From: a virus
Taxonomy: Duplodnaviria > Caudoviricetes
IMG/VR virus record: IMGVR_UViG_3300012663_000440
Coordinates: 1 to 52,253 of that record
Direction: 5' to 3' (one strand)
Length of the DNA stretch: 52,253 bases
Each line of letters opens with the position of its first letter. Within the stretch, counting starts at the first letter, position 1. The translations under genes and the position numbers were made by a program. Below are positions 26,063-50,268 of the stretch, piece by piece. A model generated the notes under the pieces. The model saw only the letters and a list, made by a program, of their open reading frames with translations. It was not told the origin of the DNA and searched no databases.

Positions 26063-26091
26063 ATTATATACTTATTTGTAAATACTGTCAA
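26063..26091 (-). promoter_or_regulatory. consensus sigma70 promoter for the tRNA-like RNA, overlapping a divergent late TAAATA box (+, 26079-26084)
   Basis: TTGACA-N17-TATAAT exact on minus; TAAATA-ctgtca-ATG on plus. Confidence 0.82.
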
Positions 26092-27065
26092 TGAGCTTTT
26101 CAACCATTCCTTTCCAAAATATTGTACGTTTTGGGCAACGCACTATGTTAGCCAAACCGTTATTTTCTACCAGTTGGATATTGGGTAGATTCTGTAATTA
26201 TAATTGTAGCTATTGTTGGCCCTATGCCCGTAGCGACAAATTAGATCACCAACCGCTTGAAGTATATAAATCTACTGTAGACGAGATTAAGCGTCAAGCA
26301 CGAGCCAATGGGTTTAACCAGTTCCATTGGTCGTTCAGCGGCGGTGAGCCGACTGCATATAAACACTTATTAGAGTTAACCAAACATTTAGATGACGGCA
26401 TATTAACTCCGTATCAAAGTGTACACATGACTACTAATTTGTCACCTAGTTTAAAATGGTGGAGCAACTGGTGTAAGAATACAGAACTACTACAGCGTAG
26501 AAGTATCACAGCTAGTTTTCATGATGAATTTGCTCGAGAACAAGAATTTAGCGACAAGTGTTTACAACTCATGTACGATCAGGTACATGTAACAATTAAC
26601 CAAGTTATGGTACCAGAAAAATTCTATGAGCTATATGAGCGATTAGAAAGATTTAACAAAAAAGGAATCAATGTTACACTCAAACCTCAAAGTGATGTTA
26701 ATGCCAGTAGTATTGTCGAAGGATATACCGATGACATGGTTAGACTCATGCAAACGGGATTCCCCCAACAAGACGCCGGCGAAGAAATCTATCAGATTGT
26801 TCTTTATGATCAAAACAACCAAGAATACTTATTTGACCAAGCTGAGCGATTTAATGCCTTTGGATTCAACAAATTTACCAACTGGTCTTGTAATAGTGGA
26901 TATCAAAGTGTTATAATAAGAGGCAACGAAGTTAAACGCAGTTATAGCTGCCACGATATTCCGTTAGGAACTTTGGACAGTTTTGAATTATTTAAGGCTC
27001 CCCAACTCTGCATTACTCCTAGTTGTGTAAGTTCAGCTGATAGTAAAATACCAAAATGCAAATAA
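26091..27065 (+). CDS. radical SAM protein with C-terminal Cys cluster
   Basis: WILGRFCNYNCSYC, FSGGEP, MTTN, F.NWSC..G...C...C..PSC. Confidence 0.88.
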   Translation: MSFSTIPFQNIVRFGQRTMLAKPLFSTSWILGRFCNYNCSYCWPYARSDKLDHQPLEVYKSTVDEIKRQARANGFNQFHWSFSGGEPTAYKHLLELTKHLDDGILTPYQSVHMTTNLSPSLKWWSNWCKNTELLQRRSITASFHDEFAREQEFSDKCLQLMYDQVHVTINQVMVPEKFYELYERLERFNKKGINVTLKPQSDVNASSIVEGYTDDMVRLMQTGFPQQDAGEEIYQIVLYDQNNQEYLFDQAERFNAFGFNKFTNWSCNSGYQSVIIRGNEVKRSYSCHDIPLGTLDSFELFKAPQLCITPSCVSSADSKIPKCK

Positions 27066-28060
27066 CTAGTGTACATAATAACTGGAAAGACGATGTTTTA
27101 AATATTAATTTAAGCCTCGGGAATATCTGCAATTATAAGTGTTGGTATTGTTTTCCAGGAAGTAATGAAGGAAATTACAAATGGCCAGACTTAGATTTGT
27201 TAAAAACAAATATATCTCATTTAATTAATCATTACCTAGAAAACAGCAATAAGAAAGAATTTTATATACAGTTTGTAGGCGGAGAACCTACTCATTGGCC
27301 AAAGCTATTTGAGTTTATTACGTTCCTTAAAGACAACTTTAATTGTTTAATTTCGATGACTAGCAACGGTTCAAAAAAACTTGATTGGTGGCAACAGGTA
27401 GCTCCATATTTTGATAGGATACAAATCAGTTGTCATCAACACTATGTTGATCGTGAGCATCTCCGAGAAGTGTGTGATGTGCTTTATGAGAATGATGTAA
27501 CAGTTAGCGTGTCGGTGATGATGGATACTAATTGTTGGGACGAGTGTGTGTCGACTGTAGAGTATTTAAAAAATAGTCGACACAGATGGACTATTCGATA
27601 TGTTGAGCTAATTCATGACAATATACAGTACTCTGAAGAACAACAAAATGTTATAAAGAATCACCGAGCTAGGGGAGTAAATTGGTTATGGTTTTGGAGA
27701 CATAACAAATACTACATTAGTAAAATAAAAGTTACTGATTCTAAAAATAAAACTCATAAATTTAAAGATAACGAAGTACTACTAAAACGATTAAATAATT
27801 TTCACGGATGGGAATGTAGTGTAGGAGTAAACTGGATACACGTAGGCATGGATGGCACAATATCCGGGACCTGTGGACAATTACTCTACGGCAATCTACA
27901 AAACTTTAATTTGTACAGTAAAGATTTTACAAACACCTTTTCTCCAACAATTATTCCTGCAATTTGTACAAAAACATCTTGCGTATGCAGTATCGAAACT
28001 AACATGCCCAAGAGGCAACTATTGTCAACTACTAGGATTATTCCAATCTATGCAAATTGA
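27056..28060 (+). CDS. radical SAM protein with C-terminal Cys cluster
   Basis: GNICNYKCWYC, VGGEP, TSNG, FHGWEC.VG...C...C....C.C. Confidence 0.88.
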   Translation: MQITSVHNNWKDDVLNINLSLGNICNYKCWYCFPGSNEGNYKWPDLDLLKTNISHLINHYLENSNKKEFYIQFVGGEPTHWPKLFEFITFLKDNFNCLISMTSNGSKKLDWWQQVAPYFDRIQISCHQHYVDREHLREVCDVLYENDVTVSVSVMMDTNCWDECVSTVEYLKNSRHRWTIRYVELIHDNIQYSEEQQNVIKNHRARGVNWLWFWRHNKYYISKIKVTDSKNKTHKFKDNEVLLKRLNNFHGWECSVGVNWIHVGMDGTISGTCGQLLYGNLQNFNLYSKDFTNTFSPTIIPAICTKTSCVCSIETNMPKRQLLSTTRIIPIYAN

Positions 28061-47952: not shown

Positions 47953-48496
47953 ATTAATTCCATGGTCTGACGAACTCGACCTTACAGAGTTTTATGCTAT
48001 TGCACAGGCTAAAGGATTTGAAAATAACTCTAGTAAAAAAATGTTAGTTGATTGCTTTGAAAGCGAGAGGGAAAAACAAACATGGATATTTTACTACAAC
48101 AACATTGCAGCAGGATCTGTAGCGGCACATAGCTTAGATATTTTACCTAATGCATATAGAATTTGTGCAAGGACTTGTGTGTTTACAGACCTATTGCCAT
48201 TCCACCAATTACGCGGTTTAAAATATACCTGCCAGCAACATCAAAATATTACAGCACAATTTTTTATCCCCCAATGTATAGAATGGGTGGGTCACGATAA
48301 AAATTTATATATCACAAGCCATCCATCATCTGTTGGGACACAAAAATTAGTACATAGCATTTATTGCCCAGCACTGGTAAAAACAGGTGCCTTAGAGCAC
48401 ACCTGTGAGATTGAATATCGAGGCCACCTGCAAACTTTCTGGAAATTAAATGTTGATGTTTTTTATGAACAGTTAAATCAATTACCTAGATGGTAA
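47939..48496 (+). CDS. GNAT-like acyltransferase (tentative)
   Basis: W.......AAGSVAAH...YRICAR.C...FIP..IEW....LYITS...YRG..Q..WKL topology. Confidence 0.4.
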   Translation: MSSYKLIPWSDELDLTEFYAIAQAKGFENNSSKKMLVDCFESEREKQTWIFYYNNIAAGSVAAHSLDILPNAYRICARTCVFTDLLPFHQLRGLKYTCQQHQNITAQFFIPQCIEWVGHDKNLYITSHPSSVGTQKLVHSIYCPALVKTGALEHTCEIEYRGHLQTFWKLNVDVFYEQLNQLPRW

Positions 48497-49202
48497 CTAT
48501 TATTGTGCTTTTTTCTGGTTTTTCGTTTCTATTCTGATTGCCAGTATGCCCGATAACAAAATTAGTAGCATCATATCCTAATATACGTTCTTGATTGTTT
48601 GGGTCAAATATAGGAATTAAAACTCCGTACTCTTTTTCTAGTTCAGTCATATCTTTAGCGTAGCCAATGCCCACAATGATAGGGCACACATGCTCGGGGA
48701 ATCCTAATTTCTCAGCAACTGATTTATGATCGTGGCACGAACCAAACCCGGTGTTAAGGCCCTGTTCTTCGGCTGCAAGTATTGCAGCCATGGTTGATAT
48801 AAAAATATCATTATGTCGTTGTTGAAAACTAGGACGATTTACTTTAGTTGGAATGCCATCGTATACAATTGTAACACTCTCTACAGCAGTTGTCGGGTTT
48901 AACCATGCAATTACTACAGGAGCACGATATTGTCCGTTGTAACCACGTACTGTATTTTCATTATCAACCCCTACTGTGCCATTACTGTGCCATGTATCTT
49001 CGTAAAACAGCCAATCTTTAAGTTTCTTACCTTCTTTGCTATCTGTAATAATAACGCATTTATGAAGATGTGCTGCCATCTTGCTCGGAGCCATGTAGAT
49101 GCAATCAGTAATGTATTCTAATTGGTCGTTAGAAATAGCTTTACTATGATCCCAGTGTTTAGTAGTAAATCTCTTTTTTAATACATCAAGTAGTTGTTTC
49201 AT
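48486..49202 (-). CDS. nitroreductase-family (FMN-binding) protein
   Basis: L..R.T.K.W, APS, APV, A.LAAEE.GL.TG, I.VGIGY. Confidence 0.78.
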   Translation of the reverse strand: MKQLLDVLKKRFTTKHWDHSKAISNDQLEYITDCIYMAPSKMAAHLHKCVIITDSKEGKKLKDWLFYEDTWHSNGTVGVDNENTVRGYNGQYRAPVVIAWLNPTTAVESVTIVYDGIPTKVNRPSFQQRHNDIFISTMAAILAAEEQGLNTGFGSCHDHKSVAEKLGFPEHVCPIIVGIGYAKDMTELEKEYGVLIPIFDPNNQERILGYDATNFVIGHTGNQNRNEKPEKSTIIVTI

Positions 49203-50268
49203 AGTTGGGTAATTTAAAATCCTTAATTCCTGCAAGGTCTACATAGTAGGCAATTTCTTCTTGGTATTTTTTTGCAGTAGGAGTATGTAAGTACGGTTGC
49301 CAAAATTCTTTTTGTAGATTTGAATAGTCGTGTTGTATTCGATAGCAAAGACGATCTTTAATATCTCCTAATCTGCGATGCAGTGTGATACTGTTATCAA
49401 ATAGGCAAAAATCATTATTTGATTTATACCAGTGATCGTAGATGTATTTGTCTACAAATAGTTCTTTATTAATTTCTTCAAATACTGAATTTGATTCTGC
49501 TTCAGTCATTCCCTTGATACTGTGTATAGTATTAGTACTGTAATGCAATCCTACAATTCCTCCTGGGCTACGCATTACAATTGGAATTTCGACATCGTCT
49601 TCGGGACACATATTAGCATGCATCACTTCGTCTTGTTCTACACGTAGTCCTGGATTAATACGTCCGGGAGTAAACCGATGCACCAGAATCATCTCGTCTA
49701 GTTCACTACGAAATGCATTGCTTACATTTTCATAATAGTCTGGAGTAGTTAAAAACCCTGTGCTAGACCCGATCATGTTCTCAGCACCTAGTAGTGCTAC
49801 ACCCGGAGTAAAAGTTAATGTGCCGCTTTCGTTGCTGTGCCAAAGAAGTTCACCTTCTGCAAACATTCCTAATGCATTACCGCTTGCATCTCTTTTGCCT
49901 GTTACTCGCATGACATGCTTTCCTTCTGGACTAGTTTCTTGCATGCGATAGATGTTCTGTAATCTAATACGATCAATTTCGTCTACACTAGGATCATTAG
50001 CTAATGCTAGGCGTACTACTTGTGTCCAAGTTTTTCCTGGATACTTCTTAAGTATTAGATAGCGTATACCATAACGGGTATCACCAAATTTCATACAAAA
50101 GTCTGTTTGTTTATCCCAGGTTAATTTACAGTCACGTATAATAGTGACTAAACTTTCCATATGCAGTTTACCAATTTCCATCCATTCGTCGTTAGTGATT
50201 GTAGTAAAATCTACGTCGTCGATGAATATGCCAAACCTGCCTAATCCCGGAATCTTGCTAACTTTCAT
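49186..50268 (-). CDS. TauD/TfdA-family dioxygenase
   Basis: G..I..VD start, LWHSNE, G.ST.F, H.W...D...FDN..TLHRR, R..YR. Confidence 0.75.
   Translation of the reverse strand: MKVSKIPGLGRFGIFIDDVDFTTITNDEWMEIGKLHMESLVTIIRDCKLTWDKQTDFCMKFGDTRYGIRYLILKKYPGKTWTQVVRLALANDPSVDEIDRIRLQNIYRMQETSPEGKHVMRVTGKRDASGNALGMFAEGELLWHSNESGTLTFTPGVALLGAENMIGSSTGFLTTPDYYENVSNAFRSELDEMILVHRFTPGRINPGLRVEQDEVMHANMCPEDDVEIPIVMRSPGGIVGLHYSTNTIHSIKGMTEAESNSVFEEINKELFVDKYIYDHWYKSNNDFCLFDNSITLHRRLGDIKDRLCYRIQHDYSNLQKEFWQPYLHTPTAKKYQEEIAYYVDLAGIKDFKLPNYETTT

Follow-up and report, generated by a model that had tools for sequence, protein, structure and literature searches.

Gene Content of the Island

The window analyzed here (the whole stretch of IMG/VR virus record IMGVR_UViG_3300012663_000440; Duplodnaviria, Caudoviricetes) covers a linear 52,253-bp viral contig in full; the contig is rated approximately 14% complete, which implies a genome of approximately 370 kb. 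At positions 26091–50268 it carries an island of genes for radical S-adenosylmethionine (SAM) proteins (rSAMs), iron/2-oxoglutarate (Fe/2OG) oxygenases, and other tailoring enzymes (Table 1; genes are denoted in the text by their first coordinate). A preliminary description, made from the sequence alone, had counted 28 consecutive genes here, almost only for tailoring enzymes. The listing of open reading frames (ORFs) indeed gives 28 from 26091 to 50268, back to back; they fall into ten transcription units that alternate in strand, interrupted only by gaps of 31, 64, 11, 27, and 62 nt, and nearly all of the products are enzymes. Pfam assigns 11 ORFs to Radical_SAM, five to Fe/2OG families, and one to Nitroreductase, leaving 11 with no family at E ≤ 0.01. 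The limits set in that description hold for the contiguous block, but not for the tailoring set, which continues at 128–12096. The G+C content of the island is 0.33–0.37, below that of the left flank (0.36–0.41 in most 2-kb windows).

Table 1. ORFs of the island and features of its flanks. Spacer, distance (nt) between the end of the TAAATA box and the ATG.
Position	Strand	Assignment	Evidence	Spacer
26091–27065	+	rSAM family A, CX3CX2C plus C-terminal twitch-like Cys set; core; operon head	PF04055, 45.4 bits	6
27056–28060	+	rSAM family A paralogue	PF04055, 36.7 bits; 36% identity to 32353, 33360	
28050–28640	+	Class I SAM-dependent methyltransferase fold; core	AF2 model, Foldseek; no Pfam match	
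28562–29170	+	No family, GDS motif only; probable start 28637	No Pfam match at E ≤ 10	
29167–29799	-	2OG-FeII_Oxy_5 Fe/2OG oxygenase; single-gene unit	PF13759, 58.9 bits	5
29864–30949	+	rSAM with no paralogue in the window; core; operon head	PF04055, 43.4 bits	8
30942–32375	+	N-terminal-twitch rSAM; most conserved core gene	NF033640, 396.8 bits	
32353–33363	+	rSAM family A; tandem paralogue of 33360, 48% identity	PF04055, 35.0 bits	
33360–34346	+	rSAM family A	PF04055, 44.4 bits	
34343–35440	-	rSAM family A; core	PF04055, 42.4 bits; 51–54% identity in relatives	
35440–36324	-	rSAM family A; core; modeled protein	PF04055, 45.1 bits; 74–86% identity in relatives	
36321–37112	-	Possible SGNH/GDSL relative, no family	No Pfam match; blastp E 1.8e-4 to 11323	
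37102–38364	-	N-terminal-twitch rSAM; core; start revised to 38364	NF033640, 320.3 bits	4
38403–39071	+	Asp/Arg-hydroxylase-type Fe/2OG oxygenase; operon head	PF05118, 23.6 bits (cut-off 22.6)	4
39068–39757	+	Small atypical kinase-fold protein; paralogue of 47245	Joint profile against TTK	
39754–40401	-	2OG-FeII_Oxy_5 Fe/2OG oxygenase; start revised to 40401	PF13759, 55.2 bits	5
40445–40996	+	Cupin/2OG-like, invariant HxD...H; start revised to 40445	Alignment A2	7
40993–41568	-	Cupin/2OG-like; paralogue of 41565	Alignment A7	
41565–42134	-	Cupin/2OG-like; paralogue of 40993	Alignment A7, blastp	
42118–43746	-	Large rSAM, weakly like B12-binding class (HpnJ/PhpK)	PF04055, 51.8 bits; NCBIfam 62–65 bits, far under cut-offs	
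43749–45020	-	N-terminal-twitch rSAM	NF033640, 271.7 bits	
45007–45807	-	Probable Fe/2OG oxygenase, invariant HxD...H plus Arg	Alignment A6; no PDB match	
45809–46597	-	No family; SGNH-like by motif only	No Pfam match	
46594–47217	-	Asp/Arg-hydroxylase-type oxygenase; head of a seven-gene operon	PF05118, 24.8 bits	8
47245–47952	+	Kinase-fold protein; only island head lacking TAAATA	Joint profile, paralogy	
47939–48496	+	Conserved protein, no family; label GNAT-like unsupported	No Pfam or PDB match	
48486–49235	-	Nitroreductase-family flavoprotein	PF00881, 48.2 bits	
49186–50268	-	TauD/TfdA-family Fe/2OG dioxygenase	PF02668, 46.7 bits	
50331–51806	-	Fiber- or tail-like protein adjoining the island	phrog_4849, E 2.1e-7; Mtd_N under cut-off	
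4152–11087	-	Satellite block: N-terminal-twitch rSAMs (4152–5654, 9705–11087), NDP-sugar epimerase/dehydratase (8702–9703), DUF6492, DUF6473, 445-aa protein with no family		

Conserved Core and Variable Shell

All 62 proteins of the window were compared by tblastn with 101 related loci, each reaching 10 kb on either side of an anchor gene. Genes 26091, 28050 (the methyltransferase; 92 loci), 29864, 30942, 34343, 35440, and 37102 are found in 90–100 of the 101 loci. They form a core of three rSAMs with a C-terminal-twitch-like Cys set (26091, 34343, 35440), two N-terminal-twitch (N-twitch) rSAMs (30942, 37102), rSAM 29864, and the methyltransferase. The gene order was mapped in six loci and in G002, a 185-kb relative that was fetched in full; the core is syntenic in approximately 90 related viral contigs and lies directly to the right of the 25032/25586 block. 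Identity is 74–86% for the best-conserved genes and 36–57% for 29864.

Behind the core, the relatives carry an Asp_Arg_Hydrox gene, a kinase-fold gene, and two genes of the 40400 type, often followed by the trio 47939–47245–45007; in G002, a block with epimerase, N-twitch, and DUF6473-like genes adjoins the core at 119–151 kb. The shell of the island consists of Fe/2OG oxygenases, small kinases, esterase-like proteins, a flavoprotein, and extra rSAM paralogues. Homologues of 42118, 45809, 46594, and 49186 occur in 2–8 loci, and 28562, 29167, 39754, and 48486 have none in the 101 loci; these low counts are partly due to reach, because the loci extend 10 kb from the anchor. The island is thus an enlarged local version of a clade-wide module with a seven-gene core and a variable shell, not a one-off: only the periphery varies.

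Phages in GenBank yield no nucleotide match to either half of the window (megablast) and no match to rSAM 32353 (tblastn). The DNA ligase of the window has its best match in Bacillus phages; since identity there is only approximately 33%, the phage cannot be named from it. No tRNA genes are seen in the window. In IMG/VR, relatives of 30942 are encoded in 199 stretches (69–81% identity), and in a large protein collection 4057 homologous proteins are found at E ≤ 1e-5 among 8000 candidates scored, each of the best 120 being at least 77% identical. Gp23 of T4 is encoded in all five large related contigs, and one of them, G003, at 359,563 bp, is rated 100% complete; on these two grounds, the clade is one of approximately 360-kb T4-like phages. 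The large relatives carry 7–16 rSAM matches apiece, mostly clustered. A cyanophage origin was considered and rejected, psbA being missing from all five large relatives. Three DNA sequencing runs share 5–6% of sampled words with the window, and their labels (riverine, freshwater, and plain metagenome) provide a lead toward a freshwater habitat of the clade.

Radical SAM Proteins

All 11 rSAMs of the preliminary description exceed the PF04055 cut-off (35.0–51.8 bits against 29.5), and a six-frame scan of the window returns the same 11 together with two weaker ones outside the island. The three cysteines of CX3CX2C are invariant in alignments A4, A8, and A9; the SAM-binding GGEP is invariant in the N-twitch alignment, and G67, G68, and E69 are invariant in the 35-sequence alignment of family A. 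All-against-all blastp combined with the alignments yields four groups. Family A comprises six proteins of 294–365 aa (26091, 27056, 32353, 33360, 34343, and 35440) with CX3CX2C and a conserved twitch-like set of C-terminal cysteines. The N-twitch family NF033640 (N_Twi_rSAM) comprises 30942, 37102, and 43749, which score 272–397 bits against a cut-off of 170 and cover model positions 1–398; proteins 4152 and 9705 outside the island are relatives linked by blastp only. Residues C31, C50, C106, and C109 are invariant in the five N-twitch paralogues of the window, and this N-terminal set is a putative site of an auxiliary cluster. The remaining groups are 29864 and 42118, one protein each.

None of the 11 island rSAMs reaches the cut-off of a housekeeping NCBIfam equivalog, and family A shows only generic sub-threshold matches to NCBIfam. 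Clusters of family A in the ESM Atlas are 89–100% viral; with 35440 as the query, 4901 representative clusters are retrieved at E ≤ 1e-3. The AlphaFold 2 (AF2) model of 35440 (mean predicted local distance difference test, pLDDT, 93.7) matches BlsE, viperin, MoaA, CteB, anSME, SuiB, SkfB, and EpeE by Foldseek at probability 1.0 and template-modeling (TM) scores of 0.54–0.60, while SpeY and BtrN reach only 0.36–0.46. Identity to the matched rSAM structures is 12–19%, and no subclass stands out; the best viral fold match of family A bears the automatic name QueE. A profile search of the PDB with the N-twitch family retrieves MoaA, CteB, BlsE, and viperin at 23–28 bits. With these characterized auxiliary-cluster rSAMs (BlsE, viperin, MoaA, BtrN/SpeY; anSME, CteB, SuiB, SkfB, EpeE) the island proteins share a partial TIM-barrel core and a Cys-rich auxiliary domain, although none of the solved structures matched has its twitch at the N-terminus. 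Small-molecule and peptide enzymes are matched alike, in agreement with the earlier statement that the substrate cannot be read from the sequence.

Oxygenases, Methyltransferase, Kinases, and Other Enzymes

Five of the 28 ORFs fall in Pfam families of Fe/2OG oxygenases (PF13759, two; PF05118, two; PF02668, one). Four more (40445–40996, 40993–41568, 41565–42134, and 45007–45807) have no Pfam match, and PDB profile searches find nothing for the 40445 (40400-type) and 45007 families. Aligned with relatives, they retain an invariant HxD...H: H107, D109, and H164 in the 40445 family (alignment A2); H101, D103, and H154, with nearly invariant R164, in 40993/41565 (A7); and H175, D177, H231, and R244 in the 45007 family (A6). 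Hence, a total of nine oxygenases, as initially proposed, is plausible, with five assigned by Pfam and four by this motif only.

The methyltransferase gene has its true start at 28050 (27852 by the ORF finder). The protein has no Pfam match, members of its alignment (A3) show only chance-level Pfam matches, and the best PDB sequence or profile match has E 0.52. In contrast, its AF2 model (pLDDT 88.8) matches class I SAM methyltransferases by Foldseek at probability 1.0 and TM 0.6–0.7, including DnrK, NodS, and ChlM, with NTM1, an N-terminal protein methyltransferase, among the top matches; at least 500 matches are found at E ≤ 0.001, and ranks 1–50 are all of the SAM-dependent methyltransferase type or close structural relatives. 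The single methyltransferase of the preliminary description is thereby supported. The same applies to its two kinase-fold proteins, the paralogues 39068 and 47245, whose joint profile (A1) matches the protein kinase TTK (E 3.6e-7) and, weakly, Bud32-type chains, and to its nitroreductase (Table 1).

Two other labels are not sustained. The three proteins called SGNH-like (28562, 36321, and 45809) have no Pfam match even at E ≤ 10; they bear GDS/GCS-type, block I-like motifs recognizable by eye only, and 36321 has a weak blastp match to the GDSL protein 11323 (E 1.8e-4). The protein called GNAT-like (47939) has no Pfam match at E ≤ 10 and no PDB profile match; its Atlas matches are viral clusters, with an Acetyltransf_1 cluster only at rank 14, where 15% of members have PF00583. 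In general, Pfam searches at E ≤ 10 with ten family-less ORFs yield nothing usable.

Late-Type Promoters

The hexamer TAAATA ends 4–8 nt 5' of the ATG at eight of the ten operon heads of the island (Table 1); it precedes the ATG of 49186 by 23 nt, which brings the count to nine of ten and bears out the box at most heads reported initially, and is lacking at 47245. At the close position TAAATA is the commonest hexamer, preceding 8 of 62 genes against 0.12 expected (unrelated hexamers, at most two), and all eight close-spaced sites fall inside the island. Five of the eight starts are those of the ORF finder; three were re-chosen, and the revised starts are backed by the N-termini of paralogues or relatives (e.g., the pair 29167/39754).

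Of the T4-type late promoter proposed earlier, the TAAATA core thus stands at the heads, but the full octamer TATAAATA is not enriched in the window (3 occurrences against 8.4 expected); it occurs at two island heads, 40445 (7 nt 5' of the ATG) and 46594 (8 nt). Sigma70-like sites are not enriched either (82 within 26000–45999 against 85.1 expected). The only 12/12 consensus (TTGACA-17-TATAAT), at 26063–26091 on the minus strand, points away from the island into the ligase/ClpP/MazG block; the preliminary description had seen no consensus sigma70 promoter inside the island.

In G002, TAAATA-N4-8-ATG occurs 14 times. Six of the ten annotated ORFs headed by it encode the terminase large subunit, tail tube, baseplate wedge, and three virion structural proteins; the others are one SbcD-like protein, one member of a PHROG family without an assigned function, and two proteins with no match. 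Among the 101 loci, 24 of the 77 homologues found for 26091 have the arrangement, as do 24 of the 47 found for 38403; no gene of the left block has it. The major capsid gene, gp23, has no TAAATA within 90 nt upstream in five of five loci; since another gene precedes gp23 there, this is uninformative. From these placements we infer that the TAAATA box is the gp55-type late promoter of the clade, and the island is probably expressed late together with virion genes, which is consistent, on motif grounds, with the late timing first suggested. The late box of T4 lies at about -13 to -6. Given this spacing, boxes at 4–8 nt from the ATG suggest that the island mRNAs are leaderless or nearly so, unlike those of T4 itself.

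Several further observations concern the same signals. No Shine–Dalgarno sequence is seen between TAAATA and ATG at the island heads, and many genes of the left block have GGAG-type sites. The fiber-like gene 50331 has TAAATA 53 nt upstream, followed by GGAG. The perfect sigma70 consensus overlaps the first TAAATA promoter of the island back to back in the 31-nt gap, early-type and late-type signals thus sharing one divergent junction. Gene 15668–16396 (minus strand) has the full TATAAATA at 26 nt upstream and then AGGAG, which makes a leadered start of late type in a left block that otherwise looks early; its product and that of 23967–24629 (minus strand) are paralogous (26% identity) and have no assigned function.

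Counterpart in Bdellovibrionota

A scan of bacteria with the N-twitch alignment, one genome per species, yields at least 103 relatives, of which the best 78 loci were kept. Of these, 55 are titled as Bdellovibrionota-type (Bdellovibrionales, Bacteriovoracaceae, Halobacteriovoraceae, Oligoflexia, etc.), including all 18 at 44% identity or higher. Homologues of 26091 (approximately 50–51%), 30942 (44–49%), 29864 (approximately 36%), 34343 (up to 38%), the methyltransferase (approximately 35%), and 4152 (49%) stand side by side there, in chromosomal clusters on contigs of up to 3 Mb. Five genomes of 2.7–4 Mb (G006–G010) carry 9–16 copies of NF033640 above the cut-off each, 65 in total, whereas the 14 control genomes have no copy; of 41 genomes sampled evenly across Bdellovibrionota, 9 possess the family. 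Tandem arrays of up to seven N-twitch genes are also seen (e.g., L143, 2928–12620).

In one Halobacteriovoraceae locus (L139), an operon of 29864-, 30942-, and 26091-like genes leads directly into a gene for a family-2 glycosyltransferase (GT2); the same locus holds two more GT2 genes, those for an FAD amine oxidase and a PP-loop ATPase, and weak matches of Asp_Arg_Hydrox-like and aminotransferase-like type. With one or another of the three L139 GT2 genes as the query, homologues lie beside N-twitch rSAMs in 4–9 of the best 78 bacterial loci; at least eight distinct loci are involved. The bacterial loci thus share homologues of the rSAM–methyltransferase core with the island, and some hold GT2, FAD amine oxidase, and PP-loop ATPase, but the oxygenases and kinases of the phage shell have no homologues there within 10 kb. 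Two further families of L139 (6102–7211) also recur in phages: that of a 315-aa protein in 23 loci and that of an aminotransferase-like protein in 7 (in G002, at approximately 121 and 157 kb); hence, the gene set shared by phages and bacteria exceeds the core counted above.

The preliminary description had named a one-to-one correspondence with a known host pathway in conserved order as evidence against its view of the island. This is half the case: at least five core genes have homologues that lie together in Bdellovibrionota; however, this cluster is itself uncharacterized and hence does not represent a known host pathway.

Substrate and Destination of the Product

We tentatively favor a late pathway in which a sugar-derived moiety is tailored for the virion surface; the analysis establishes anatomy, conservation, and the association with TAAATA boxes, whereas the class of substrate and the destination are inferred. 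The core would act on a sugar-derived or nucleotide-linked small substrate rather than on a ribosomal peptide, with the rSAMs performing oxidation, epimerization, or C–C/C–H chemistry before a methylation step; hydroxylation, phosphorylation, and (de)acylation of the core product would fall to the shell. The enzymes would be made together with virion parts from late promoters, and the product would most likely end up on the virion surface (fibers or capsid), differing among related phages.

A sugar-type substrate is suggested by the GT2-linked bacterial operons together with an embedded or adjoining epimerase: a nucleoside-diphosphate (NDP)-sugar epimerase/dehydratase gene is located between two N-twitch rSAMs in the window, inside the core in a related locus (L030), and directly upstream of the core in G002. 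The contact of the kinase profile with Bud32/Kae1-type small kinases is counted in the same direction, as is the apparent resemblance of the methyltransferase model to small-molecule methyltransferases. No precursor-peptide gene of a peptide that is made on ribosomes and modified after translation (RiPP) was found: the gaps of the island (11–64 nt) leave no room for one, as none exceeds 64 nt, and the small ORFs to the left of the island encode IF-1 and unrelated proteins. Outside support for high late expression comes from the T4-like cyanophage S-SCSM2R, whose virion proteome is reported to hold a 2OG oxygenase and an amidinotransferase (2025; PMC12801897).

Several observations weigh against this reading. 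No glycosyltransferase (PF00535) is found in the window, the related genome G001, or G002, which leaves the attachment of a glycan by the phage itself unexplained and weakens the glycan decoration considered in the preliminary description. Homologues of the L139 GT2s are found in no phage locus; none of the ten neighbors in L128, the first bacterial locus examined, has an informative Pfam family; and in five Bdellovibrionota genomes inspected by eye, strong epimerase genes (PF01370) do not appear to lie beside N-twitch clusters, where only two weak short-chain-dehydrogenase-like matches are seen within approximately 2 kb of N-twitch genes. Family A matches the folds of nucleotide- or sugar-acting and of peptide-acting enzymes equally, the shell contains hydroxylase and kinase families of protein type, and the late timing is deduced from a motif.

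Direct post-translational modification of side chains of virion proteins (fibers, capsid, or decoration proteins), with no glycan intermediate, ranks just behind tailoring of a sugar moiety and is nearly as likely. Most characterized SPASM/twitch rSAMs act on peptides or proteins, and CteB, anSME, SuiB, SkfB, and EpeE are among the top fold matches here, although matches to small-molecule enzymes are equally good. PF05118 and PF13640 are protein-hydroxylase families (Asp/Arg hydroxylase and P4H-like), the kinase profile is closest to a protein kinase, and one of the top matches of the methyltransferase model is NTM1. The absence of a glycosyltransferase, the fiber-like genes at both ends, and the predicted co-expression with structural genes also fit. 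On the other hand, no candidate substrate motif or recognition domain is identified, the bacterial core stands in GT2 operons at some loci, and the NDP-sugar epimerase is embedded in the module or adjoins it.

A free small molecule (aminocyclitol-, nucleoside-, or lipid-like), made late for release at lysis or for action on the host or competitors, appears unlikely. Biosynthetic gene clusters usually combine a conserved core with a variable shell of tailoring genes, and the fold and profile matches include the nucleoside enzyme BlsE as well as the twitch dehydrogenases BtrN and SpeY. Modules of Campylobacter phages pair rSAMs with an amidinotransferase, and aminotransferase, amidinotransferase, and rSAM are reported together in a cyanophage (PMC12801897). 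However, Pfam finds no amidinotransferase, aminotransferase, carrier protein, or exporter in the window, and the benefit of a late product to a lytic phage is unclear.

Post-replicative DNA hypermodification before packaging, another option of the preliminary description, is quite improbable. Late-expressed DNA modification has a precedent in Mom of phage Mu. The window has a PTPS/QueD gene (753–1277), the best viral fold match of family A is automatically named QueE, and the DNA of the rSAM-rich Campylobacter phage CP220 is reported as fully 7-deazaguanine-modified (bioRxiv 10.1101/2023.04.13.536721). Yet QueC (PF06508) and TGT/DpdA (PF01702) are missing from five of five relatives, including the complete 359-kb genome, although a divergent DpdA3-type protein might escape PF01702; the 7-deazaguanine route is therefore disfavored. 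In addition, no NCBIfam QueE score comes near the cut-off, and Pfam finds no DNA-binding or base-flipping enzyme in the island.

Least probable are auxiliary metabolic genes aiding the host under low oxygen or Fe–S stress, as proposed first for CP220/CPt10 (PMC2853527), with Fe–S-related gene sets also noted in a T4-like marine genome (PMC5332604), since none of the 11 rSAMs reaches a housekeeping equivalog cut-off, the rSAM families are almost wholly viral in the Atlas, the timing is predicted to be late, with virion genes, and the combination of O2-requiring Fe/2OG oxygenases with oxygen-sensitive rSAMs fits a simple anaerobic boost poorly.

Returning to the tailoring of a sugar-derived moiety, its widest form appears unlikely: the core would be an undescribed radical-chemistry pathway common to approximately 360-kb T4-like phages and predatory Bdellovibrionota, building a variable, heavily oxidized and methylated decoration of sugar type on the attacking surface (phage fibers or capsid; predator envelope), in the phage from leaderless late messages and possibly aided by the phage IF-1.

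Relation to Known Systems

Modules with multiple rSAMs in T4-like phages have been in print, unexplained, since 2010. For CP220 and CPt10, two T4-like phages of Campylobacter, Timms et al. (2010; PMC2853527) described 11 and 12 rSAM proteins, including an interchangeable module of five rSAMs with a glycine amidinotransferase, reported without a function. These and related Firehammervirus phages (CP21, CP20, IBB_35) are, like the clade of the island, T4-related myoviruses rich in rSAMs. They provide the best cultured-phage fold matches of family A (TM 0.52–0.74, the highest value for two CP21 proteins) and 15 of the 32 GenBank phage records matched by family A in tblastn; QueD lies near the rSAM module, as in the window. 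However, identity to family A is only 17–29%, mostly in the N-terminal half; the glycine amidinotransferase has no counterpart in the window by Pfam; and the genomes are of approximately 177 kb against approximately 360 kb.

The host recognition cluster (HRC) of pelagimyophages and cyanomyophages is a large hypervariable island of aquatic T4-like phages in which tail-fiber genes are mixed with those of non-structural enzymes; according to Zaragoza-Solas et al. (2020; PMC7029224), the pelagimyophage HRC holds fibers, glycosyltransferases, and variable rSAM cassettes, the cassettes vary from one close relative to another, and the core genes of the group include an Asp/Asn beta-hydroxylase. By contrast, the HRC has a defining location, between VrlC and the neck gene gp14, genes that the window lacks, and is rich in glycosyltransferases and lipopolysaccharide genes, none of which is found in the window; moreover, the alteration of the host surface against coinfection favored by its authors would need early, not late, expression. 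The 183-kb T4-like marine genome TARA_ERS488813_N000010 has a similar number of rSAM genes (12; Nishimura et al., 2017; PMC5332604), presented there only as Fe–S-related content, without cluster anatomy, timing, or function.

In the literature searched (for Bdellovibrio and twitch rSAMs, titles and the beginnings of abstracts), no description of the clade core, or of the Bdellovibrionota loci and their paralogue expansion, is found. Relative to it, the seven-gene core, the two virus-rich rSAM families, the late and apparently leaderless promoters, and the multi-gene counterpart in Bdellovibrionota would be new. The rSAM core is conserved in an abundant uncultured clade of apparently freshwater jumbo phages, is probably co-expressed with virion genes, and is also present in predatory bacteria; this narrows the question and provides experimentally reachable stand-ins, namely, Campylobacter phages in culture and Bdellovibrionota that can be cultured. 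A product that decorates the virion would represent a new phage surface chemistry relevant to host range and defense recognition; were the product instead a small molecule or a novel modification of proteins, the two virus-rich rSAM families would supply new enzymology. The leaderless late-promoter arrangement and the syntenic phage IF-1 form a separate point on gene expression in jumbo phages.

Flanking Genes

As stated in the preliminary description, fiber-like genes flank the island: both 50331–51806 and 1381–2877 match PHROG tail or virion families. The tailoring genes at 128–12096 include, besides the satellite block (Table 1), those for a 2OG oxygenase, PTPS/QueD (753–1277), and a GDSL protein (11323). 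The epimerase/dehydratase of the block scores 153 bits with PF01370, and a PDB search with DUF6492 yields nothing useful. Between the region 128–12096 and the island stands a leftward-directed block of genes, including those for DNA ligase, ClpP, MazG, a metallophosphoesterase, and IF-1, which the perfect sigma70 consensus heads.

The IF-1 gene (24632–24850, minus strand) encodes a full-length 72-aa homologue (PDB IF-1 chains, E 4.5e-21) and is syntenic, at 62–85% identity, in all 16 related loci that cover this neighborhood; a connection between the phage IF-1 and the leaderless-looking operons is speculation. Its neighbor 25586–26059 (minus strand) has a probable internal Met start, a signal-peptide-like N-terminus (MKRVLLVGLL...), and an HExxH motif at its end, and may encode a small secreted metalloprotease-like protein; this gene is kept beside the island in relatives (14 loci).

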